From: Phormidesmis sp.
GTDB taxonomy: Bacteria; Cyanobacteriota; Cyanobacteriia; Leptolyngbyales; Leptolyngbyaceae
Length of the DNA: 64,000 nt
NCBI GenBank assembly: GCA_965248535.1
Contig: CBDFJR010000005.1
Span: 128,001-192,000, forward strand
Reading direction: 5' to 3'
Both the position numbers and the translations under genes were made by a program. Below the pieces are notes generated by a model. The model was not told where the DNA came from. It saw only the letters and a program-made list of their open reading frames with translations, and ran no database searches. Positions 4,020 through 41,597 of this stretch are shown here, piece after piece; the stretch's first letter is position 1, and every line of letters begins with the position of its first letter.

Positions 4020-4673
4020 TTAATTTTCCCATCTCCAGTTGGGACGGTTCCATTCATAAACGCCTTGAATTTCATATTCATTGCCATTCTCAAAACGAAC
4101 GGTGCAGTGGGTGCTGGTTTGGCTTTCGGCAACGCCCTCTTTATAAAGAGGACTTTGGGTTTCTGTGAGGCTAATCACCGTGCAGACAAACCACTCGCGG
4201 ACACAGGGGCCGGTGTCTTGCACCCATTCCCATAGCCCGTTAGATAACTCTATACGATCGCCGACTTTGAGCAATTGGGTCGATTCTTCATAAGCAGCGA
4301 GATCAGAGGAGCTAATCGTTTCTAGCCACTGAAGCCCTAGGGAATCGCGAATGAACTGCACTGTGCCCGAAGCGCGATCGTGCAGCCAATCATTGAGCAG
4401 TGTGGTCTTCCAAGATTTGTTTTGCTGCTCTTGATCGTGAATAAATTCAAACAGGGCTTGACGTTGTTCGGCGGTCAAGGCAGCTAGCGGATTGATCGCT
4501 GAGAGTGGCTCAGGGGATGGCTCACACTGGGATTGTCTCAACGCAGCCAATAAGATCTGCTGTTGAGCAGCGTTTAAAGGATGTCCAGCCGTTTCACAGT
4601 GACGAAAGGCAGTTTGCAAGGCTGCTTCGATCTCAGCTTGGGTCATGGGCAAATCGATAGAGAGAGCGGGCAC
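4020..4673 (-). CDS. Conserved cyanobacterial hypothetical protein
   Basis: 217-aa ORF of natural composition with a beta-rich C-terminal domain (GLWEWVQ...IQGVYEWN). Confidence 0.7.
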   Translation of the reverse strand: MPALSIDLPMTQAEIEAALQTAFRHCETAGHPLNAAQQQILLAALRQSQCEPSPEPLSAINPLAALTAEQRQALFEFIHDQEQQNKSWKTTLLNDWLHDRASGTVQFIRDSLGLQWLETISSSDLAAYEESTQLLKVGDRIELSNGLWEWVQDTGPCVREWFVCTVISLTETQSPLYKEGVAESQTSTHCTVRFENGNEYEIQGVYEWNRPNWRWEN

Positions 4674-4793
4674 ATGAAGTTTAACGGATGGTGTCGTCTC
4701 GTGATTTTAGAGGGCTGTGACCAGAACTCTAAATCCGTTATTGCCTTTAATTATGGCAGAAGTGTTGTTTGGCTTACATCGGTTGAGTGAGGT

Positions 4794-5123
4794 CTAATAG
4801 CGCGATCGCTCTGTGAGCAATTTATAACCACTCACGAGGGCTGCAAAGGCGATCATAAAGTTCCAAAGGCTAGTGGGTTGAAGAAATACGCCACCACTCA
4901 AGAAGACTAGTAGAATTCCTGCCATTAATAACACCCAGCCAAACGTTCCGGTTTCTCTAGGAAAGCAAACCAGAGAAATGGTGCCTCCTGCTACACATAA
5001 AACAGACCCGATCGCGGGCATGCTTCGCCAAAAATAGGGGGAGTAGTAGGTAGAAAACATAATGTCTTTACCCAGGAAATAAGTTCCTGCAAGCACTAAG
5101 AGAATCCCGAATAACTTACGCAT
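4794..5123 (-). CDS. Small multi-pass membrane protein
   Basis: 109 aa with about four hydrophobic segments. Confidence 0.7.
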   Translation of the reverse strand: MRKLFGILLVLAGTYFLGKDIMFSTYYSPYFWRSMPAIGSVLCVAGGTISLVCFPRETGTFGWVLLMAGILLVFLSGGVFLQPTSLWNFMIAFAALVSGYKLLTERSRY

Positions 5124-5189
5124 GGTTGATTGTAATGACTGAATCTCATTTAGACATCAGATAGAGAGATCTGGAATCCGGATAAATGC

Positions 5190-6038
5190 TCAAGATTGTT
5201 CTAAAAGCGAGAGTGCTAGTTGATAAATCTGTCGTCGTGGCAGTGAAGTCTGTTGAGCAAGTTGACGGCTGGCATCAGAGCGAGAAAGCCCTTGATCGAG
5301 CAAACTTTGAAGCTCAGACTTTAAAGTGGCTTCTGATAAGACAAGTTGCACCGACTCAGCGCCAGAAACGACGATCGTATATTCTCCTTGGGGTTCGCGT
5401 GTGAGATAAAGCGCGATCGCGTCTGCAACGGTGCCGCGCCAAAATTCTTCGTGCAGTTTGGTGAGTTCTCGCGCCAATGTGATGGCGCGATCGCGTCCCA
5501 ACGTTTCTGCTAAATCTTGCAAGGTAGCTCTCAATCGATGGGGCGATTCATAAAAAACCAGCGTCCGCGATTCAGAGCGCAGGCTGTCTAAGTGGATGCG
5601 ACGAGCTTGACTTTTAGCAGGCAAAAATCCTTCAAAGATAAAGCGATCGCTGGGCAACCCCGATGCACTTAAAGCCGTGATCACCGCGCTGGCTCCAGGA
5701 ATGGGCACAATGGTAATCGCTTCATCAGCACAGGCTTTGACCAACTCATAACCCGGATCAGAGATTCCGGGCATTCCGGCATCACTCACTAGGGCGATCG
5801 AGCGTCCTTGCTGCAATTTTGACAGTAGCTCTGCGGTGCGAGTTGTGAGATTGTGTTCGTGATAGCTGATCTGAGGAGTTTTAATTTGAAAGTGGTGCAG
5901 CAGTTTGCCTGTATGACGAGTGTCTTCGGCCGCAATCAAATCAACGGTTTGCAAGATTCGCACGGCTCGAACGGTCATATCTTCAAGATTGCCGATCGGG
6001 GTGCCAACAATATAAAGGGTTCCAGCGTTTGCATCCAT
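5190..6038 (-). CDS. rsmI: 16S rRNA (cytidine1402-2'-O)-methyltransferase
   Basis: LYIVGTPIGNLED, AAEDTR, VSDAGMPGISDPG, FEGFLP, YESPHR, ARELTK; start set at ATG 6038 to avoid overlap with the divergent gene. Confidence 0.95.
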   Translation of the reverse strand: MDANAGTLYIVGTPIGNLEDMTVRAVRILQTVDLIAAEDTRHTGKLLHHFQIKTPQISYHEHNLTTRTAELLSKLQQGRSIALVSDAGMPGISDPGYELVKACADEAITIVPIPGASAVITALSASGLPSDRFIFEGFLPAKSQARRIHLDSLRSESRTLVFYESPHRLRATLQDLAETLGRDRAITLARELTKLHEEFWRGTVADAIALYLTREPQGEYTIVVSGAESVQLVLSEATLKSELQSLLDQGLSRSDASRQLAQQTSLPRRQIYQLALSLLEQS

Positions 6039-30352: not shown

Positions 30353-31774
30353 TTATCTGCCCAGAATGGTCGGATTATTGGATGCAAACACGCCCGCGAC
30401 ACAGCCGATCATCAACGTGGCTAGGGTTGCCGCCCAAAGCGCCTTCCAGCCCAACTCGCTGAGATCTTTGCGGCGAGACGGAATCAGACTCACAAAACCG
30501 CCCACAAAAATGCCGACAGCCGGAAGATGGGCAAAGCCACAGAGCGCATAGCTGATGATGAGAAGGGCCCGATCGCTGATCGCGCCTTTGTCGGCTAAAA
30601 CCGCTAACTGCTGATAAACCGGAACTTCGGTTTCGAGCAGCCTGCGCCCAATTAATAGCGAAGACTGCCAAAGCTCTGGCCAGTTGAGCGAAACGCCCGT
30701 GAGAAACGTCAACGGCAAAAACAGCGCCCCGACAATGTTTTGCAAGGTCACGACTTCAAAAATCAGACCCAACCGACGGACAAATAGATTGCTGCTCTGG
30801 GCAAGGGATGCGAGATTGCCAAAGAACAGATTCACCAGCGCCACTAACCCTAAAACGGCGATTAAGAGAGCAGCGATCGAGACCGCCAACTTCACCCCAT
30901 CCATTGCGCCCGTGATAATGCTTTCCATCGCGTTTGATTCGAGATTTGCATCGTCGGGTGACTCGGCTGGCAAACTTCCCAGGGTTTTAGGAGTCTCAGT
31001 TTCGGGCACCAGCAGTTTAGCTGTCACAAAACAAGCCGGAATCGCCATGATCGAAGCCGAAATCAAATGCCCGGTGATATTGGGAAAAACAGGGCGAAGT
31101 AGCTGTGCGTAAAGCGCTAAAACCGTTGAGGCAATGCTGCCATAGCAAGCTGTGAGAATGGCGCACAACTCGCTGCGCGTCATCTCGGCTAAAAACGGCC
31201 GGACGACCAGCGCAGACTCAATGCCGACAAAAATATTGGTTGCGCCGCTTAACGCCTCTGCGCCGCTCAAGCCCATTGTGCGGCGAAATAACTTGGCGAA
31301 AATATTCACAACTGGCTGAATCAATCGCAAGTGATAAAACAGCGACATCAGCGCCGAAAAGAAAATCACTGACGGCAGCGCCCGAAACGCAAACACATAG
31401 CCCAAATTGAGATTGTCAGGGCTGAGGCGATCGCCAGACACAGGCACATAGGGCGGCGTAACGGCGCGGGCAATCCAGCGCCCTGCCAAAATCGGGCCCG
31501 GCACGCGATTGGGTTCGGGCACGAGCAGAGAGCCAAAGATAAACCGTGATCCTGCTTCGGTGGCATCTAAAATTGCGTTCACGCCATCACTGAGCACCTG
31601 AATCACCGTGCGGGTGCCGGGGAAGGAGAACACCAACAGCCCCAGCACTAGCTGTAACCCAAGCCCCCAGATAATCACCTTCCAGGGAATGATGCGGCGA
31701 TTTTCAGACCCTAACCAGGCGATGCCACAGAGCGCAAAAATGCCAACGAACGACAGAAGATTTAACCAGGTCAT
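30353..31774 (-). CDS. NupC/CNT family nucleoside transporter
   Basis: FAFRALPSVIFFS, SGAEALSGA.NIFVG, IS.S.MAIPA, SYALCGFAH. Confidence 0.92.
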   Translation of the reverse strand: MTWLNLLSFVGIFALCGIAWLGSENRRIIPWKVIIWGLGLQLVLGLLVFSFPGTRTVIQVLSDGVNAILDATEAGSRFIFGSLLVPEPNRVPGPILAGRWIARAVTPPYVPVSGDRLSPDNLNLGYVFAFRALPSVIFFSALMSLFYHLRLIQPVVNIFAKLFRRTMGLSGAEALSGATNIFVGIESALVVRPFLAEMTRSELCAILTACYGSIASTVLALYAQLLRPVFPNITGHLISASIMAIPACFVTAKLLVPETETPKTLGSLPAESPDDANLESNAMESIITGAMDGVKLAVSIAALLIAVLGLVALVNLFFGNLASLAQSSNLFVRRLGLIFEVVTLQNIVGALFLPLTFLTGVSLNWPELWQSSLLIGRRLLETEVPVYQQLAVLADKGAISDRALLIISYALCGFAHLPAVGIFVGGFVSLIPSRRKDLSELGWKALWAATLATLMIGCVAGVFASNNPTILGR

Positions 31775-34390: not shown

Positions 34391-35899
34391 TCAACGAGCG
34401 ACGGCGGGTTTTTGAGTCGCCTTAGGCTTGGGTGACTGTTGAGGAGCAGGCACCGCCGGAACCGGAAGCGGTTTTATAGTGGTAGGCACCGCCGTCGAAG
34501 TCGGAGCGGGCACACTCGCCGGGGGCTGGCTTTTCGCCCAAAATGCTGCGCTGCCCGTGTCATAAAACCCAGCCACACACGCGATCATCATCGTCGCTAA
34601 AGTGCCCACAAAGAGCGCCTTCCACCCCAGTTCTGAAATGTCTTTGCGACGAGACGGAATCAGCGCGATCGTGCCTCCCACAAAAATCCCCACCGAGGCC
34701 AGGTGAGCAAACCCAGACAGCGCATAGCTGATGATCAAAACCGCCCGATCGCTGAGAGGGTGAACCGGACGAGCGGCAGCAGCAGCCAAAGCCTGATAGG
34801 GCGGAATCGCCGTTTCTAGCAATCTGCGCCCAATAATCACCGACGATTCCCACAACTCATTCCACTCTAGAGACACGCCCGTCAAAAACGTAAACGGCAG
34901 GAACAATGCGCCCTCAATATTCGCCAGAGTGACAATGCCAAAAAACTGTCCAATCACCCCCGGAATGCCCGCCAAGCCTGCAAAAATTTGATTGACGAGG
35001 GACACCAAACCCAAGATGAGAATCAGCACGGCGGCGATCGCCACCGACATTTTCACCCCGTCTAAGGCACCCACGATCGCCGCATCTAGAGGACTCACTC
35101 GCTCGATCGGTTCGCCACCGACCGTCTCTCTAGACAACCCTTCATCGTTTTCATCTCGGTCTAACTCAACTGGAATGCCCCCCGCCGTTAGGGGAACCTC
35201 GGTTTCGGGCACCAAAATCTTAGACAACACAAAACAAGCCGGAATCGCAATGATCGACGCAGAAACCAAGTGTCCTAAAATGTTGGGAAACACCGGACGT
35301 AAAAAGCTGACATAAATCGCCAGCGTTGATGAAGCCGCCGTGCCAAAACAGCAGGCCAAAATCGCACAGAGTTCGCTGCGGGTCATCTTCGCCAAAAAGG
35401 GCTTGACCACGATCGCCGCTTCAATGCCGACAAAAATATTCGCCGCGCCGCTCAACGCCTCAGCCCCACTCAACCGCATCGTAGTGTAAAACGCTTTCGC
35501 AAACAGATTGGTGACGACCTGAATCACGCCAATGTTATAGAGCAACGCCATTAAACCAGAGAAAAAAACCACCGTCGGCAAAGCTCGAAAGGCAAAAATA
35601 TAGCCGAGATTAATATCAGCAGGTCGAGTCGGCAACGGGACAATATTTTTGCCAAACACAAAACTCGCACCCGTATCTGCGGCCAAAAACACGCCATCTA
35701 GCAGGTTACTAAAGACTTGCAGCGCCTCTCTTGTGAAGGGCAACCAAAACACTAGCGCCCCCAGCACCAGTTGCATCAGAATTCCCATGATCACGACGCG
35801 CCATGGAAAGACTCTAGGGCTGCGGTTTTCTGAAAACAGCCAGGCGATCGCACACAAGCCAAAAATGCCTAAAAATGAGATGAGATTGAGTAGACTCAT
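34391..35899 (-). CDS. NupC/CNT family nucleoside transporter with a Pro-rich C-terminal tail
   Basis: Paralog of 30353-31774 with the same motifs. Confidence 0.92.
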   Translation of the reverse strand: MSLLNLISFLGIFGLCAIAWLFSENRSPRVFPWRVVIMGILMQLVLGALVFWLPFTREALQVFSNLLDGVFLAADTGASFVFGKNIVPLPTRPADINLGYIFAFRALPTVVFFSGLMALLYNIGVIQVVTNLFAKAFYTTMRLSGAEALSGAANIFVGIEAAIVVKPFLAKMTRSELCAILACCFGTAASSTLAIYVSFLRPVFPNILGHLVSASIIAIPACFVLSKILVPETEVPLTAGGIPVELDRDENDEGLSRETVGGEPIERVSPLDAAIVGALDGVKMSVAIAAVLILILGLVSLVNQIFAGLAGIPGVIGQFFGIVTLANIEGALFLPFTFLTGVSLEWNELWESSVIIGRRLLETAIPPYQALAAAAARPVHPLSDRAVLIISYALSGFAHLASVGIFVGGTIALIPSRRKDISELGWKALFVGTLATMMIACVAGFYDTGSAAFWAKSQPPASVPAPTSTAVPTTIKPLPVPAVPAPQQSPKPKATQKPAVAR

Positions 35900-36092: not shown

Positions 36093-36377
36093 ATGGATGC
36101 TTTTAAGCCAACCGCGCCGACCTGGACAGAACTCGCCGTTCACGCTCATGAGTTTCACTGTCCTGCTTGCCATAAATCTTGCATTGAAGCAGACCAGGTT
36201 TGGGTAAATCGACGATCGCCCGTTTTTTCAGATGACTATCGCAAAAAATGGCAAGAGTTTTATCAGTGCCAGTGTGGTCAGGTTTGGTGGGCTTGGAGTA
36301 ACGATCGTCCGCCGTCAGAGTTGCCTGAGCGCGATCGGCCAGTCAGAGATGTTTTTAACCCGTTTGACGATCTGTGA
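36093..36377 (+). CDS. Small Cys-rich (zinc-ribbon-like) cyanobacterial protein
   Basis: CPAC...CQC, WQEFY, WWAW. Confidence 0.75.
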   Translation: MDAFKPTAPTWTELAVHAHEFHCPACHKSCIEADQVWVNRRSPVFSDDYRKKWQEFYQCQCGQVWWAWSNDRPPSELPERDRPVRDVFNPFDDL

Positions 36378-36470
36378 GAACGAATGTGGAGTGCTAGTTC
36401 AAACAGCCGACCAGATGCTTAAGAAGCATTTAGAAAAAAGTTAGGCGAGTCTACATTCCACGATCGATTT

Positions 36471-37466
36471 TCACCACAAGGATTTTCGACATATGGAATT
36501 CGGAAAATTTTCGACAAATCTTCTATGGGAAGTAACCGAAGGACTATACGTAGTCGGATCTTTACCAACCTCAATTAAAATAGTTCCTCCACAGCATTTT
36601 TTACTCATAAGTCCCTTGGCGGGTAAACCGCTGAGATGAACAATATTGCCATCTGGCAAATTTACAGCACATTTCTCTGATAGCTGTGTGCATAAAATAT
36701 GAGCCTTCGGCGTGGCTAATAAAACTCCCTCTACAATCTCATCATCTGGATTTTTATGAAGCTTTCTGTCAATTGAGAAAATGACTAACTTGGGCCGCAC
36801 AAGACTGCATAATTGTTGAGCAAATGCTTTGCTGTTTACACGAAAACCTGGTTTACCACCATGATGGGGAAAAACTAAAATATCAGCTTGTAGGTCTTCA
36901 GATTCCTTGAGCATATTGTTTAGCCCAGTTTGGTCTAAATCTCCTGCTAGAATAGCGACCTTACGAGTGTTGTAAACTAGAGAAACGACGGCTGACATAG
37001 AATTAGCTCGTAGAGTTTTACCCGCCAAGTCTTTTCCACCTACACCTGCTAAGGCAAGTTCTGGAACTGGAGCGAGTACTTCAACGATCACTTGTCCAAC
37101 ATTAAGTTCGCCCGTTGTTGATGTTGTCAATTCTGCCTTAACTTTGACACCAGAACGGCGACGTGCATCTCCCAATGCACTGAGTACATCTTTCCAGACT
37201 TCAGTGTCTCTGAGCCAATCGGAATTGAGGTGGATATTATGAATTTTGATATCTCGATTCAGGAGTAGCTGAGGAATTCCAGCAATGTGATCTTGGTCAG
37301 CGTGAGAAATCAAAACATGGGAAATTTCTGTGATCCCAAGATGATGCAATGTTTCTGGTAATACAGCACCGGGAGGACAGTCAATCAGCACCGTGCCTTC
37401 TGTATCTCTCAACAATGCACAATTGCCATGTCCAACATCTAAAATGATTAGCTCAGGAAATTCCAT
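36471..37466 (-). CDS. ComEC/Rec2-like MBL-fold hydrolase (probable nuclease)
   Basis: LDVGHGN, LID, SHADQDH, N.MS, AGD, PHHGG, S...H.NP motifs; no TM competence domain; Cys-rich C-terminus; ATG at 37466. Confidence 0.85.
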   Translation of the reverse strand: MEFPELIILDVGHGNCALLRDTEGTVLIDCPPGAVLPETLHHLGITEISHVLISHADQDHIAGIPQLLLNRDIKIHNIHLNSDWLRDTEVWKDVLSALGDARRRSGVKVKAELTTSTTGELNVGQVIVEVLAPVPELALAGVGGKDLAGKTLRANSMSAVVSLVYNTRKVAILAGDLDQTGLNNMLKESEDLQADILVFPHHGGKPGFRVNSKAFAQQLCSLVRPKLVIFSIDRKLHKNPDDEIVEGVLLATPKAHILCTQLSEKCAVNLPDGNIVHLSGLPAKGLMSKKCCGGTILIEVGKDPTTYSPSVTSHRRFVENFPNSICRKSLW

Positions 37467-38187
37467 CAATCTCTTCCGGTGTAGGTGCTACTTCAAAATC
37501 AGTGAAATATAAATCTTCAGGATTCTCAGCACCGCTATTGACATTAGCAATGAGGCGAGTACCGATTTCTGGCTCAAAGTTAAAAATCCATTCACGGATC
37601 AAGGATAAAGGTAACGGCACAGGAGTCTCAGGCTTCCAACTTGGAATGATTACATCTACAACGTCCTCCCTGTAGTTTGCATCAAAATCAATAATCCTTA
37701 CTATGTTTCTGTAAGGTTTTCTGTCACTTGAAAATGTCCCACCAAACTCAGATAAGCAAGTTTCTAATCCTGCTTTTATGGTGGATTTATTTAAATTACT
37801 CTTGCTCAAAAGCACAGGTATTTTGTGCCTAAGTTTTCTGATGGGTACATCTTTATCCATCTCGTAAAACTGAGTATTTAGTATCGCTGGTATTTTCCGA
37901 TCGTATAGAGTTGCTACCAAGTCAGAACCATCAAAATTAGCGAATCCAGATTTTCTTAGGCGCTGATCACACAAAACTCCGTATGTATCTTCAGAAATCT
38001 GCGATATTAAGTCATCAATATCTGTGAAAGAACCTTCAACAATCAAAACCGGTTCGTAACCTGCCTCTTCAACATCCCAAAACGCTGCGTTAGCAAAATC
38101 TTTTTCATCATCAATGATGAAAACTTTAGACTTCTCACGTGGTTGTTCACTTGAAAGATCTTCAGCAAACTTGCTTATTGCAACCAT
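37453..38187 (-). CDS. Receiver-domain protein with an uncharacterised C-terminal domain
   Basis: VFIIDDE acidic pocket, LCDQRL (phospho-Asp), LNT and LSK conserved positions; about 90-aa beta-rich C-terminus. Confidence 0.78.
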   Translation of the reverse strand: MVAISKFAEDLSSEQPREKSKVFIIDDEKDFANAAFWDVEEAGYEPVLIVEGSFTDIDDLISQISEDTYGVLCDQRLRKSGFANFDGSDLVATLYDRKIPAILNTQFYEMDKDVPIRKLRHKIPVLLSKSNLNKSTIKAGLETCLSEFGGTFSSDRKPYRNIVRIIDFDANYREDVVDVIIPSWKPETPVPLPLSLIREWIFNFEPEIGTRLIANVNSGAENPEDLYFTDFEVAPTPEEIDGIS

Positions 38188-40241
38188 TACAAAACTCCAG
38201 TTAGTGGTAATTTGACCATGAATTCTGCACCGCCTAGTTCACCGTTTGCTTTCGCCCATATTTCACCGCCTAAATCAGTGACCGAATCTTTAACGATCGT
38301 CAACCCCAAACCTGTACCTCCTGATGTGGTTGTTCGACCAGGCAGCCAAATCTCGTCTAGAGCCAAGCTTTTAATCCCAAGACCACTATCCAGAAATCGA
38401 AGCTCAAGATAGGTTGTCGTCAACACGGTATTAACTACAATTTGACGTTTTTCACAGGGTGCATCTTTGTCGTTGAAGGCATTAATTGCATTAGTCATGA
38501 GATTAACAAGGATGGCTTCTAAGAGGGAAATGCTGCCACGTATCGATGGTGCGCCATCAGCTAACTCTTTCTTAACGTCTACTTTTGCTTCTTCTAAAAA
38601 TGGTTGGAATAGCTCGATCACTCCATCAATTACATTGTGAACATCAACAGTACTCGATCGTCGTTTTGTGCGTTTTAGTAGATGTAGAGGAAACTTAGCA
38701 AAACTCTTTAATGAGTTCGCAGCCCTATACAGCATCTCTACAGGCTCACCTAGAGTTCTGACATACTGACCCGCTAATAGTTTTTGTCCTTGTGTTGCAA
38801 TTCGTTTAGCAGCTTTCTCAACTAAAGTGACTGGTTTACCTGACTCATGGGCAAATAGCGCGGCGGTTGTACCCGCTGTTGCCAAACTACGGTAGAGCAA
38901 TACGTCTTCCCGTAATGACTGAGTTTCACGCTCCTTAACTCTTTCGTAGTTCTGGATCAACTGAAGTACTTGTGTGCGAGATGTTTGAGGAATCTCTAAT
39001 GCTGCGATCGTTTCCTCAACTTTAGTTTTAGCCTCTACTACAGCATGGTTGATGTCTCGCTTGCCTTGATCTCGTTTTTTCTCAGACTCCTTCAATCTCA
39101 CATCAGCCATCCACTTAAAAGCATCGATCGCAAATTGTCTAAGTTCAGAAAACGCCTCATTTTCAATAAATCCTAGTCGATCTGTCTTTTGAATTAAGAC
39201 ATCATCTGGGTCAACGACAACCACACGACCAATTACCGTGTTAGTTGAAGGACGCTCTTCGGCTGCTTTTGCCCTTTCCAGGTTAATATTCAACCAATCG
39301 TTACCTGAGTCTCCATAGGGTTTCACTCGTAGCCCTCGATGATAGAAATGCACCCCTCCTACAATCGAGAGCCAATCTCTAATCTCTCCAATAGATGCTG
39401 TTCTCTCTCTTCGAGAAAAGGTTTGGGAACTCAGCCCAAAAATCCACACTTCGAGGTTTGCTGCTACTGTTTGATAGGGTCTTTGGGCAGAGTGTTGAAG
39501 ATCACTACGGAACAAGACATCCCCCTTCCAATCTGTAAGCCTTGCTTCAGCTTTACCATGAGCATCTAGAGAGGCGCTGAGTCGGTATTCAGTATCCTCA
39601 AAATAAGCTTCTTGCACCCGCTTTTCCAGTTCAGCGAACCCTGGAGCAATCAGTTTGGGACGGAAGCCAGTTTCACTATCAAACGGGTCTGCTAGTAATA
39701 AAAGTTCCCTGGCTAACCGTTGAACTTCCCGTTTACCCAGTTTAAATCTTAAATTTTGAATAATAGTATCAGTGCCTTGGGATTGTTGTGTTTCATCCTC
39801 TTCGACAGCGAGAGCAACATCTTCAACCACTTTTGCCTGAGCAAAGTCATTCCAGTCGATGGACAGAGAATATTCAATGCCAGAGTTGTCAGCAGATCGA
39901 GTTTTCAAGGTAACGTACGAACCTTGTCGAAGAGCCGCCAGTCTCCCTAAGCCCTTATCCCCCACAGGTAACCGCCCTAATTGAGTGGGAAGACGAGCCG
40001 CTTTTTTAGAGCGCCCAATGACAAGCCACCCCTCAGCGATCGCGTTTAAGTCCATGCCAATGCCATTATCTGATACGACAAGCGAACCCCCAGTTGTTTC
40101 AGAATTGATTATTTGAACTGTACATTCTGTGGCATCTGCGTCGTAAGAATTCTTTACCAGTTCCATAATGCCTTGGTCAGGATTAGGGATGAGTTCCTCA
40201 CCCAATCTACTTAGGATGTCTGGCGAGAATTTGAAGTGCAT
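38187..40241 (-). CDS. MORC-like GHKL ATPase fused to a histidine kinase
   Basis: N-terminal ELVKNSYDADA, DNGIGM, GDKGLGR, GT; C-terminal FAHESGKP (H box), NLMTNA (N), DSGLGI (G1), GGTGLGL (G2). Confidence 0.88.
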   Translation of the reverse strand: MHFKFSPDILSRLGEELIPNPDQGIMELVKNSYDADATECTVQIINSETTGGSLVVSDNGIGMDLNAIAEGWLVIGRSKKAARLPTQLGRLPVGDKGLGRLAALRQGSYVTLKTRSADNSGIEYSLSIDWNDFAQAKVVEDVALAVEEDETQQSQGTDTIIQNLRFKLGKREVQRLARELLLLADPFDSETGFRPKLIAPGFAELEKRVQEAYFEDTEYRLSASLDAHGKAEARLTDWKGDVLFRSDLQHSAQRPYQTVAANLEVWIFGLSSQTFSRRERTASIGEIRDWLSIVGGVHFYHRGLRVKPYGDSGNDWLNINLERAKAAEERPSTNTVIGRVVVVDPDDVLIQKTDRLGFIENEAFSELRQFAIDAFKWMADVRLKESEKKRDQGKRDINHAVVEAKTKVEETIAALEIPQTSRTQVLQLIQNYERVKERETQSLREDVLLYRSLATAGTTAALFAHESGKPVTLVEKAAKRIATQGQKLLAGQYVRTLGEPVEMLYRAANSLKSFAKFPLHLLKRTKRRSSTVDVHNVIDGVIELFQPFLEEAKVDVKKELADGAPSIRGSISLLEAILVNLMTNAINAFNDKDAPCEKRQIVVNTVLTTTYLELRFLDSGLGIKSLALDEIWLPGRTTTSGGTGLGLTIVKDSVTDLGGEIWAKANGELGGAEFMVKLPLTGVL

Positions 40242-40523
40242 TGCTATTTTTTGTGCCAGTGAGATTTTATCGTTGTCCTCATCATATCAATCTCCCAAAA
40301 ATGCGTTCTGATGGTGGGTAAATTTTATTGGGAATGCACCTAGAAGTCGTCTCTATTTTGCGGAGTCACTGCTCATCCCTCAACAACTACCCCACAGATT
40401 GACTCCTGAATGGCGAAACCGCAGACAACTGGATGCCCTCACCGCAACTTGCCGTTGCACTTTGCACTTAAACGCTCCCCCTGCAATGCGACAATGAACC
40501 CGTCCCTTTGTCGATAAACTCCC

Positions 40524-40751
40524 ATGTGGCGTGTCATCGTTTATTGTTCTGCTGATAGCTGGCGCATTCATGCCACTGCTTTTAAAGCCATTGCTGCAAA
40601 ATATCAGACCAAGCCGCTCTCTAGCAAAAAAATGAAAGACGATGAGCGGCGAATTATGGAATTTCAGGTAGAGGAGGTGGACGATGCTGAGTCTTTTCAA
40701 GATGAGTGCATGACGCTGGAAGGATTTAGCGCTCAGTTTGAGTCGCTGTAA
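40524..40751 (+). CDS. Small conserved hypothetical protein
   Basis: 75-aa ATG ORF of natural composition. Confidence 0.6.
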   Translation: MWRVIVYCSADSWRIHATAFKAIAAKYQTKPLSSKKMKDDERRIMEFQVEEVDDAESFQDECMTLEGFSAQFESL

Positions 40752-40856
40752 GGACATTTATATCCAGCGATCGTTCAAACTCAGATAAACCTCCCGGCTG
40801 ATGCAGATTTGGGCAGAAAGTGAGCTTTACTAGGCAAAGGGTTTCTAAAAAGTTTC

Positions 40857-41597
40857 ATGGCAAAGCAGCGATCGGATCTCAAAATTCTCCTCCTACAAAT
40901 CCGCAGTGACGCGATCACGCGATTAGAAGAGCTAGACGAGTTTGGGCGCTATGGTCGCTTAGAACCCCACCAGTTTTCGGTGCTCGATGTCTTTGCCACT
41001 CCTGACTTTAGCCCGACTGAGATTGAAGGCTATGATGCGTTATTTATCGGCGGATCGAGTGATGCCTCGGTGACTCAGCCAGCGTTATATCCCTTTGTCG
41101 AACCTACTAAGAAGCTGATTGTTCACTGTCTTGACAAAAGCATTCCTGTTTTTGCTTCTTGTTTTGGGTTTCAGGCGGCGATCGAGGCCTTAGGTGGGCA
41201 AGTGATCGTCGATAAACCCAATATGGAGATGGGCACCTATCCCATTTGGTTGACTGAAAATGCTGCGAGTGATTTGCTCTTTCATGACGTGCCGAATGGG
41301 TTTCTAGCCATCTCAGGTCACAAAGAACGGGCAATTTCAATGCCCAAAGATGCCATTTTGTTAGCCTATTCCGATCTCTGTCCGTTTCACGCCTTTAAGA
41401 TTGTCGATAAACCATTTTATGGCTTTCAGTTTCACCCCGAAGTCGATGCCAAAGATTTAGTCGCTCGCATCAGTCGCTATCACGAACGATATTTGGACGA
41501 TCGGGCCCTGCTCGATCGCATTCTAGATCAAGCGCAAGACACGCCGATCGCCAATCAACTAATCGAGAAGTTTGTCGATCGCATCCTGCTACAGTAA
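40857..41597 (+). CDS. Type 1 glutamine amidotransferase (GMP-synthase-like)
   Basis: GGS, SCFGFQ (catalytic Cys), QFHPE. Confidence 0.88.
   Translation: MAKQRSDLKILLLQIRSDAITRLEELDEFGRYGRLEPHQFSVLDVFATPDFSPTEIEGYDALFIGGSSDASVTQPALYPFVEPTKKLIVHCLDKSIPVFASCFGFQAAIEALGGQVIVDKPNMEMGTYPIWLTENAASDLLFHDVPNGFLAISGHKERAISMPKDAILLAYSDLCPFHAFKIVDKPFYGFQFHPEVDAKDLVARISRYHERYLDDRALLDRILDQAQDTPIANQLIEKFVDRILLQ

Follow-up and report, generated by a model that had tools for sequence, protein, structure and literature searches.

The stretch of DNA analyzed here, hereafter the window, is 64,000 nucleotides long and corresponds to positions 128001-192000 of contig 5 in the 5.03-Mb genome of the cyanobacterium Phormidesmis sp. 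(GCA_965248535.1); all coordinates below are those of the window. Positions 36471-40241 are filled by three co-oriented, overlapping minus-strand genes encoding, in order, a histidine kinase that carries a GHKL-transducer ATPase, a divergent receiver protein, and a ComEC-like hydrolase of the metallo-beta-lactamase (MBL) fold. This cassette is probably a mobile, self-contained conflict system of a phosphorelay-run, restriction-like family, most likely directed against phages or plasmids and operating by the mechanism proposed below.

The open reading frame (ORF) list gives products of 684, 244, and 332 amino acids. The GHKL-transducer ATPase/histidine kinase (684 amino acids, identified by Pfam, NCBIfam, and a Protein Data Bank (PDB) profile) is encoded at 38187-40241, the receiver-adaptor protein (244 amino acids, with a confident AlphaFold2 (AF2) model) at 37453-38187, and the MBL-fold hydrolase, the presumed nuclease effector (331 amino acids from its ATG, identified by Pfam, PADLOC, and a PDB profile), at 36471-37466, all on the minus strand. 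The MBL reading frame has an alternative TTG start, which extends it to 36471-37469 and 332 amino acids, and residue numbers for this protein follow the 332-residue form; translation from the ATG at 37466 gives 331 residues. The gene junctions were read directly from the sequence and are as first reported in the original prediction, which was made from the DNA letters alone. The kinase and receiver genes meet in a TAATG stop/start overlap on the minus strand, and since this motif occupies 38189-38185 (that is, 38185-38189) the kinase stop codon TAA and the receiver ATG have one base in common. The receiver and MBL genes overlap on the same strand by 14 nucleotides (37453-37466), the MBL ATG lying at 37466-37464 and the receiver-gene TGA at 37455-37453. 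No convincing membrane segment was found in any of the three proteins, again as had been claimed: the highest 19-residue Kyte-Doolittle mean was 1.63, for a Glu- and Pro-containing stretch inside the MBL fold (residues 126-144), and the maxima for the kinase and receiver proteins were 1.45 and 0.83.

The kinase was recognized at both of its ends. Pfam placed HATPase_c_3 at residues 24-149 (E 1.3e-20) and HATPase_c at 572-681 (E 2.9e-19), and NCBIfam likened residues 441-680 to AtoS/ZraS-type kinases and the first 180 residues to the N terminus of BbrUII/HgiDII-family restriction enzymes. A profile search of solved structures matched ZraS over residues 438-679 (E 3e-20) and, for the N-terminal domain, MORC3 (7e-4), MutL (2e-3), and MORC2 (2.4e-3), with no match for residues 157-437. 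Residues 1-440 were modeled by AF2 from an alignment, giving a predicted local distance difference test (pLDDT) of 70.8 and a predicted template modeling score (pTM) of 0.64, and a Foldseek search with this model returned MORC2 (9cdh; E 7e-12, 450 columns) and MORC3 (6o1e; E 3.8e-11) at the top, followed by Hsp90, ParE/GyrB, SMCHD1, and MLH1/MutL near 1e-10. The two MORC alignments span ~ 450 columns of the 440-residue model with TM-scores of 0.47-0.48, and an S5-like transducer is present in the model at middling pLDDT. The profile and Foldseek matches thus identify the 'sensor' of this kinase as an ATPase of the MORC/MutL/GyrB kind, with GHKL and transducer domains. By eye, the invariant stretch G295-V-H-F-Y-H-R-G-L-R-V recalls the MORC-specific S5 motif GhXhhpXXRhl but is one position out of register with it.

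Three parts of the kinase could be delimited on the minus strand. The MORC-like GHKL and transducer ATPase module, which is the presumed sensor (residues 1-360; AF2 model and Foldseek), is encoded at 39162-40241. Two long helices joining it to the kinase core (residues 362-439; helices 362-414 and 419-439 by DSSP of the model) are encoded at 38925-39158, and the DHp and catalytic domains (residues 441-684; invariant motifs and the ZraS match) at 38190-38921, with the codon for H465 at 38847-38849. Motif assignments for all three proteins rest on alignments of 22-25 homologues, 24 in the case of the kinase. The N-terminal domain has a GHKL fold with all four ATP-binding motifs, in which E27, N31, and D34, D58, G60, and G62, G94, K96, G97, and G99, and G156 and T157 are invariant. 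The core retains H465 (within FAHE), N580 and N584, D618 and G622, and G642-G646 in all 24 sequences.

The receiver protein was matched by no Pfam, NCBIfam, or PADLOC model at E<=0.1. An AF2 model built with 22 homologues (pLDDT 85.6, pTM 0.82) shows a five-fold beta-alpha receiver fold for residues 21-148. A VIA-align search gave a Z-score of 13.6 to 3jte (root-mean-square deviation 2.9, 119 residues aligned), and the top 10 rows were receiver domains save for one ubiquitin protease chain; Foldseek likewise returned many receiver domains, with TM-scores to the target of ~ 0.73. On these matches and the motifs, a divergent receiver (REC) domain was assigned to residues 21-148 (37744-38127, minus strand), with the codon for D74 at 37966-37968. 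Across the 22 homologues D26, D27, and T105 are invariant and D74 is retained in at least 90% of rows, and these residues stand at strand ends, D26/D27 at strand 1, D74 at strand 3, and T105 at strand 4. Of the residues expected of a two-component pair, the kinase has the H-box histidine and the N, G1, and G2 boxes, and the receiver has the acidic pair, acceptor Asp, and Thr. The claim that all motifs are intact was upheld for the kinase boxes, the MBL ligands, and the receiver Asp and Thr, but not for the receiver Lys, for which there are two candidates: the invariant K122 comes ahead of strand 5, whereas K/R129, present in 21 of 22 rows, comes after it.

The C-terminal part of the receiver protein is a small beta domain, predicted to be an MBL-docking adaptor (residues 153-240; 37468-37731, minus strand; interface of the complex model and AF2 secondary structure). 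In the AF2 model its core (159-233) runs strand-strand-strand-short helix-strand-strand, that is, five strands and not a winged helix, and we take this strand order to recall an OB-like barrel. Whole-model fold searches did not place its fold class, and were uninformative on this part of the protein because their listings consisted almost exclusively of receiver domains; querying ESM Atlas with the last 95 residues yielded no usable match either. Two groups of relatives bear on the division of labor within the protein. In two homologues from Chloroflexia without a kinase neighbor the acidic pair and acceptor Asp are gone (VVCVHRL), which fits an acceptor Asp that exists for the kinase. The receiver proteins of more distant, HNH-type cousins align only over residues 20-108 (hhalign probability 23%, E 9e-4) and have unrelated C termini, as would be expected if each adaptor is suited to its own effector. 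The Chloroflexia homologues come from metagenome-assembled genomes (MAGs; L040:7980-8762 and L041:7908-8762), are 34-35% identical to the window protein, have no MBL neighbor either, and adjoin a ResIII/ERCC3-type helicase of 475-478 amino acids. They resemble a pseudo-receiver form of the protein that has some other partner.

The third protein matched Pfam Lactamase_B (4e-12), and has both the metal-binding motifs of that fold and similarity to the MBL domain of ComEC. In the PDB profile search ComEC chains came first (2.2e-9 to 1.9e-8), followed by CbpE/Pce (3.4e-7). The closest PADLOC models were RTasMBL (1.4e-10), LmuA (1.4e-9), and PDC-M48B (6e-8), and the MBL matches as a whole, from 1.4e-10 to 8e-4, were to MBL subunits of DRT (RTasMBL), Lamassu (LmuA), PDC-M48B, and Avs1a. 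Invariant residues are D30, H56, D58, D60, H61, D177, D179, H202, and H203; the metal-motif codons lie at 37287-37304 (H56-H61) and 36861-36866 (H202-H203) on the minus strand. The protein resembles ComEC/Rec2 and the defence MBL subunits in its H-x-D-x-D-H and P-H-H-G type motifs, but scores far below the cut-offs of these families (31.8 bits against a cut-off of 190 for TIGR00361), and it differs from ComEC in being soluble, in lacking the membrane domain, in its Cys/His-rich C-terminal extension, and in its partners. With these results the domain calls of the original prediction, a MORC-like GHKL ATPase-histidine kinase, a receiver protein, and a ComEC-like MBL, all stand. A role in competence and DNA uptake, suggested by the likeness to ComEC, was rejected because of the missing membrane domain and the mobile context linked to restriction-modification (R-M). 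PDC-M48 was also considered, and was dropped because the other two proteins match no PDC-M48 model. The C-terminal extension (residues 240-332; 36471-36750) has invariant C260, C267, H278, C293, and H315 and near-invariant C292 and C327, and judged by this pattern could be a zinc-binding module.

The relationship between the receiver protein and the MBL protein was studied by complex prediction. Three runs gave ipSAE interface scores of 0.87, 0.87, and 0.88 (median 0.87), the best of three controls scoring 0.00. Of 157 solved complexes 116 reach the pass mark applied, as do 2 of 215 mismatched pairs; these counts are only rough here because our own alignments were supplied for both proteins. 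At least 82% of contacts were common to the runs, and the partner pLDDT was at least 81. On the receiver side all contacts fall within the beta domain (153-240). On the MBL side they comprise residues 33-39, 59, 63-72, 90-101, 283, and 288, placing the predicted interface on and just after the H56-H61 metal motif, with residue 59 inside it. Residues 283 and 288, which also contact the receiver-adaptor in the predicted complex, belong to the C-terminal extension. The receiver protein had no sequence matches in the PDB, and we are aware of no experimental structure of such a complex from which the model might have memorized the answer. The prediction supports binding of the receiver protein to the MBL through its beta domain. 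The earlier proposal that the receiver controls the MBL therefore gains a confident predicted complex, while the switching itself is something we infer.

Insertion of the cassette between ordinary genes, as had been proposed, was borne out by comparison with relatives. The GC content of the trio is 0.40-0.45 versus 0.51-0.58 in the flanks. When 8.4 kb spanning the locus was searched in 30 relatives, the cassette stretch was unmatched in all seven genomes of the same genus, in which both flanks matched at 83-88% identity, and blastn placed the insert junctions at ~ 36380 and 40470-40474. The insert of ~ 4.1 kb (~ 36381-40473) consists of the three genes and non-coding ends of ~ 90 and ~ 230 bp. 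In one relative (L048) the site is empty, the flanks lying 27 bp apart. In three others (L044, L045, and L046) it contains a BrnT/BrnA toxin-antitoxin pair (Pfam E 4.5e-26 and 3.5e-19), and in L047 a 162-amino-acid ORF of unknown family with a GC content of 0.38, so that the occupancy among the five relatives examined is three, one, and one for BrnT/BrnA, the ORF, and nothing. From the flank matches and the differing site contents, the trio is therefore cargo in an intergenic hotspot that varies within the genus, bounded by a gene for a 94-amino-acid protein (36093-36377) and an amidotransferase gene (40857-41597). The insert ends have no terminal direct or inverted repeats, and the insert contains no integrase or transposase. 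Scans of 36250-40900 for promoters and terminators gave chance levels (7 promoter-like sites versus 7.7 expected, and 5 terminator-like sites versus 4.2).

The original prediction had named co-occurrence of the three genes elsewhere as a check, and the trio does co-occur. A pattern scan of 185,579 species genomes yielded 42 loci, in which the trio members were then mapped by tblastn. The order kinase-receiver-MBL was found in 38 of them; in L035 and L042 the contig ends after the receiver gene, and the two Chloroflexia loci, L040 and L041, have the receiver-like gene only. In 40 of the 42 the kinase gene immediately precedes that of the receiver. A search of 5.8 billion proteins with the receiver protein gave 58 homologues, and wherever the source name includes an organism, that organism is a cyanobacterium. 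The distribution is sparse, with a close homologue in 7 of 401 evenly sampled genomes of the phylum, the present genome included. Copies outside cyanobacterial chromosomes were found in Acidobacteriota (L036) and on plasmids of Burkholderia, Hymenobacter, and Pseudanabaena. One genome (G118) has two diverged trios on different contigs (L061:9196-13011 and L062:6184-9988), the kinases of which fall in different subclades of a quick tree.

Each of the three genes gave a ratio of nonsynonymous to synonymous substitution (dN/dS) of 0.10-0.26 in six cyanobacterial pairs by the Nei-Gojobori method, with dS at 0.8-1.5 and thus near saturation, and the catalytic residues are invariant (receiver D74 in at least 90%) across sequences that are 48-60% identical. 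Among the 38 loci with the complete order, 34 are intact and four disrupted: in L002 both the kinase gene and the MBL gene are interrupted by insertion sequence (IS) elements, in L015 and L034 the MBL reading frame is broken, and in L039 the kinase has a deletion and the MBL is truncated. On the Pseudanabaena plasmid, IS982 lies within the MBL gene of the trio. Such broken copies are as expected of a costly effector.

The nearest relatives outside the cyanobacteria add a fourth gene. A tblastn search with the kinase against 72,556 plasmids returned 88 records, and on Burkholderia sp. IDO3 p1 and on a plasmid of Hymenobacter volaticus the genes run N6 DNA methylase-kinase-receiver-MBL and touch or overlap one another. 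These proteins are 42-44% (kinase), 30-34% (receiver), and 36-38% (MBL) identical to those of the window. At the acidobacterial locus L036 this position is occupied by a homologous methylase, 38-40% identical to the Burkholderia and Hymenobacter methylases, so an N6 methylase lies immediately upstream of the trio in all three MBL-type copies from outside the cyanobacteria. The L036 methylase (4461-5906) matches no Pfam model at E<=1e-5, and its best PADLOC match is mad2 of MADS (E 1.9e-12). The 4.1-kb insert contains no methylase, so that the methylase paired with a nuclease that characterizes classical type II R-M is absent from it; no homologue of the sister-branch methylase was found in the present genome or in the flanking sequence retrieved for the 39 cyanobacterial loci (tblastn E<=1e-3), and Pfam detected no DNA-methylase domain among 81 representatives of neighboring genes. 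In a quick maximum-likelihood tree of 32 kinases the methylase-bearing rows fall outside the methylase-less cyanobacterial clade, which fits a single methylase loss in the cyanobacterial branch; this tree has SH-aLRT supports of 81-87, a midpoint root, and long outgroup branches. The R-M link that the original prediction had drawn is thus realized in the methylase-bearing copies, and in one relative that is a methylase-GHKL-kinase fusion, but the absence of the methylase from the cyanobacterial copy had been overlooked.

That fusion came from a wider search. A profile of the ATPase module matched 8612 cluster representatives at E<=0.001, of which 1496 remained at E<=1e-30, and most of the 150 matches listed are of 680-750 amino acids. 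From the lower-scoring part of those 150, 24 representatives were picked; all 19 of 685-800 amino acids, together with the 1401-residue P0272, have both HATPase_c_3 and a C-terminal HATPase_c, and the four of 407-517 amino acids match over the N-terminal GHKL domain only. P0272, named at NCBI as from a MAG of a Planctomycetota bacterium, has a C5 cytosine methylase in front of the GHKL ATPase and histidine kinase, an arrangement that suggests that methylase and kinase act as one complex in the methylase-bearing relatives. Distant kinases in 14 small genomes of one family, within the same phylum, occur in three kinds of operon: C5 methylase-kinase-354-amino-acid receiver protein; Eco57I-like N6 methylase-kinase-receiver of 209-221 amino acids-HNH nuclease; and C5 methylase-kinase-unknown protein. 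A distant cousin is also present on conjugative plasmids of Campylobacter, represented by pCA639-1 of Campylobacter armoricus (L066) and by 43 Campylobacter records among the kinase-matching plasmids; it comprises a 731-amino-acid kinase, a 340-amino-acid 'response regulator', and a cytosine methylase gene in divergent orientation. Both this regulator and the 354-amino-acid proteins (L051, L053, and L054) have a long C-terminal part that matches no Pfam family and that may represent an effector fused to the receiver.

Computation has given us the assignment of the domains, the insert, the conserved trio, the methylase in the sister branches, and the docking prediction, and from these we infer the cue, the phosphotransfer, the direction of control, the substrate, the nuclease activity, and the role in defence, in the following scheme. 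The kinase would be a soluble dimeric histidine kinase in which a MORC-like GHKL and transducer ATPase replaces the ligand-binding sensor. Relatives with this pair of domains close as an ATP-driven clamp, in some cases around DNA. A DNA- or infection-related cue would alter the state of the clamp, and the long helices would relay the change to the kinase core, whereupon H465 would be phosphorylated and the phosphate passed to D74 of the receiver. The receiver, seated on the MBL through its C-terminal beta domain beside the metal motif, would when phosphorylated activate the enzyme or lift a block on it, and the MBL would then degrade nucleic acid. The cyanobacterial branch, the window copy included, would have lost the N6-adenine methylase found just upstream in other phyla. 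With the methylase lost, self-protection must therefore rest on the kinase gate, on unlinked host methylation, or on a changed or modified target. A more specific version of this scheme, in which the MORC-like clamp-kinase reads the state of DNA, a receiver-adaptor permanently docked at the MBL metal site switches cleavage on within seconds and without new transcription, and the gate alone protects the host, the methylase having been lost once and the three genes held under purifying selection, is put forward only tentatively, and we rather doubt that all of it will hold.

The surroundings of the trio were examined by clustering 528 ORFs of at least 90 amino acids from the 42 loci and the window locus. 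Outside the trio, the most widely shared ORF cluster occurred in no more than 15 of these loci, and it was a mixed one, with members of 306 to 1352 amino acids on either strand and either side of the trio. One representative of each of 81 selected clusters was scanned against Pfam. Housekeeping neighbors include EF-G, L10/L12, carboxysome shell proteins, aconitase, and PutA. Conflict-related or mobile neighbors include YoeB/YefM, PIN, Fic, XisH/XisI, Uma2, AAA_15/21, Cap17-TIR, TIR-pYEATS, NACHT-TPR, integrases, and IS elements. In the window the flanking genes are nucleoside-transporter-like, glutamine-amidotransferase, lpxB, lpxA, fabZ, lpxC, and bamA-type genes, the amidotransferase being named from a Pfam scan and the others from their translations. 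Two paralogous nucleoside-transporter-like genes (30353-31774, 473 amino acids, and 34391-35899, 502 amino acids; minus strand) lie 2.6 kb apart just upstream of the hotspot, with a glycosyltransferase gene and a large membrane-protein gene between them.

Several observations weigh against a phosphorelay-run defence system. Defence-island enrichment appears weak, since many neighbors are housekeeping genes, and a scan of viral contigs with the receiver alignment gave nine pattern matches of which none was confirmed. PADLOC gave no system-level match: its MBL matches are subunits of other systems, and its kinase matches are only to the N-terminal GHKL part of 'REase_II' models and to TmtA. The ATPase model is middling (pLDDT 70.8), with MORC ahead of Hsp90, GyrB, and MutL by only about tenfold in E. 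The MBL fold also includes hydrolases that are not nucleases, CbpE/Pce and Apyc1 being among the weaker matches, and the docking score is a model confidence and not a measurement. The authors of the preprint on Ambrosia, an anti-phage system of similar architecture, favor in its available text transcriptional control by the receiver and not direct control of the nuclease (10.1101/2025.09.30.679545). Finally, a restriction-like nuclease without a methylase needs other means of sparing its host, and this methylase-less state is the chief unexplained point.

The main rival explanation is that the trio is a selfish addiction module, in which an MBL toxin would be held in check by the docked receiver and by the kinase acting as kinase/phosphatase, and which would persist through post-segregational killing or by stabilizing plasmids and islets. 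The plasmid copies are in keeping with this, as are the BrnT/BrnA pair that holds the same hotspot in relatives, the toxin-antitoxin genes that are frequent neighbors of the trio, and the frequent inactivation of copies by IS elements or frameshifts; the predicted tight binding of the receiver to the effector would also be antitoxin-like. However, a 684-amino-acid ATPase-kinase is elaborate as the regulator of a simple addiction pair, and Ambrosia, a cousin at the level of architecture, protects from phage without toxicity to the host according to the available preprint text (10.1101/2025.09.30.679545). We consider an addiction module unlikely, and note that it overlaps with a defence role because R-M-like systems can do both. 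It could also be that the trio performs ordinary cytoplasmic two-component signaling, the MBL hydrolyzing a small molecule or nucleotide, such as a second messenger or an envelope phosphodiester, for physiological ends. The annotations of the genes as 'sensor histidine kinase', 'response regulator', and 'MBL fold metallo-hydrolase' read this way, and Apyc1-type cyclic-nucleotide hydrolases and the CbpE/Pce esterase among the weaker MBL matches, together with the many housekeeping neighbors, are compatible with it. A physiological role accords poorly, however, with the patchy distribution (7 of 401 sampled genomes, and none of the seven others of the genus), with the copies in other phyla and on plasmids, with the DNA methylase and HNH nuclease of sister and cousin cassettes, and with best MBL matches to ComEC and to subunits of defence systems, and we regard it as improbable.

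Two further explanations carry very little credence. In a transcriptional model of the kind favored for Ambrosia, the phosphorylated receiver would turn on transcription of the nuclease gene and not the enzyme. This has a precedent in that the Ambrosia authors describe, in the available text, reporter induction on infection and a winged helix in their receiver (10.1101/2025.09.30.679545). In the window protein, however, the modeled C terminus is a five-strand beta domain with a short helix and not a winged helix, this domain is predicted to bind the MBL (0.87 versus 0.00 for the best of three controls), and the three overlapping genes resemble one transcript, so that we think it very improbable. 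No more probable is a decaying remnant, the cyanobacterial trio being a non-functional leftover of an R-M-like system after methylase loss. Here the missing methylase, in and near 39 cyanobacterial loci and in the present genome, and the several disrupted copies have to be set against a dN/dS of 0.10-0.26 for all three genes, catalytic residues conserved across sequences 48-60% identical, and 34 of 38 full-order loci intact. Conservation has largely refuted this explanation already. The reading of the trio as a phosphorelay-run conflict system is accordingly the one we retain.

To date, Detocs and, according to a preprint, Ambrosia are the systems in which a two-component relay has been shown to form the core of immunity. 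The family described here offers a cleaner test case for direct control, because its receiver has no recognized DNA-binding domain and its docking on the nuclease is a high-confidence prediction. Its sensor is a MORC-type ATPase, a module whose signaling output is poorly understood from bacteria to humans, and the paired natural versions with and without a methylase bear on whether gating alone keeps an R-M-like nuclease safe. The profile search suggests that there are thousands of GHKL-kinase fusions, and a worked example would annotate many genes now labeled only 'ATP-binding protein' or 'sensor histidine kinase'.

In the original prediction the three-gene architecture was not recognized as a named defence system, but it has described kin. 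Bellieny-Rabelo et al. (2021) defined, in silico, the families HEF_HK (PF19191) and Response_reg_2 (PF19192), a pair linked to R-M systems and to paraMORC ATPases, the genes of which show 91.6% linkage across 644 regions, mostly in Proteobacteria; the dominant HEF_HK architecture is HATPase_c_3, HEF_HK, and HATPase_c, and R-M genes, C5 methylases, HNH, and Vsr are over-represented nearby, as given in the available main text (PMC8011034). The window pair is likewise a soluble kinase with HATPase_c_3, DHp, and HATPase_c beside the gene for a divergent receiver protein without any other known domain, and is of a class linked to DNA methylases and nucleases (PMC8011034, same text). At the level of sequence the two differ: no window gene matches PF19191 or PF19192 at E<=0.1, and a six-frame search of the genome at E<=10 gave one PF19191 match, on another contig, and none for PF19192. 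We conclude from this that the window genes are a sequence lineage separate from HEF_HK/Response_reg_2 with the same build. The words 'lactamase', 'ComEC', 'cyanobacteri', and 'phage' are absent from the main text of PMC8011034, the supplementary tables of which could list an MBL neighbor, and the literature searched for the two families returned the original work only, plus an unrelated mention. No paper was found joining histidine kinase, receiver domain, metallo-beta-lactamase, and anti-phage defence.

Fusions of MORC with histidine kinases, which the original prediction had called established, could not be traced to the MORC paper of Iyer et al. (2008), in the available passages of which 'histidine kinase' occurs only within the name GHKL (PMC2292703). 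The MORC and paraMORC GHKL-S5 ATPases of R-M loci resemble the window module in having a GHKL domain that retains every ATP-binding motif and leads into a transducer, and in having R-M-associated relatives, but the window module is fused to a complete histidine kinase core, a fusion that the passages do not mention (PMC2292703). Detocs, as far as its available text goes, consists of the TPR-sensor kinase DtcA, the buffer receiver DtcB, and the receiver-effector DtcC; the kinase His and receiver Asp are needed to activate a cell-damaging effector, and effectors can be swapped (10.1101/2023.01.24.525353). It is thus a defensive two-component system with His/Asp-dependent effector activation, which is its likeness to the system proposed here. 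It differs in that its sensor is TPR and not a GHKL ATPase and its effector is fused to a receiver, where ours is a separate protein predicted to dock on an adaptor domain, and in that the window cassette has a single receiver gene and lacks the second, 'buffer' receiver. No Dtc-named PADLOC model matched the window proteins.

Among the closest described systems by architecture is Ambrosia, reported in Gammaproteobacteria, which comprises an XRE protein (AbrR), an N6 methylase (AbrA), a HK/HATPase protein (AbrB), a winged-helix receiver (AbrC), and an HNH protein (AbrD). According to the available preprint text it protects P. aeruginosa against phages without host toxicity, every gene and the receiver Asp are needed, and a phage is not protected by AbrA methylation (10.1101/2025.09.30.679545). 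A phosphorelay-run, restriction-like class is therefore already in print, from the 2021 and 2025 work taken together. The possibility that the locus matches a described system, which the original prediction had kept in view, is accordingly answered in two parts: the PADLOC run gave no system-level match, but the trio belongs by architecture to the class of Ambrosia and the HEF_HK pair. In the literature searched we found no description of the MBL effector, the effector-docking receiver-adaptor, or the methylase-less cyanobacterial branch. Set against the available account of Ambrosia, the window cassette has no XRE gene and no N6 methylase, an MBL stands in place of HNH, and its receiver has a beta adaptor predicted to bind the nuclease where AbrC has a winged helix. 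The N6 methylase is present in the Burkholderia, Hymenobacter, and L036 copies, and HNH only in the distant cousins. The two systems, compared here in architecture only, are alike in combining a kinase that has HSP90-like ATPase domains with a receiver and a nuclease in one cluster. The methylase-kinase-receiver-HNH order of the distant cousins in the 14 small genomes and the N6 methylase of the sister branches extend this likeness, and the receiver Asp that Ambrosia requires is conserved throughout at least 90% of the window family.

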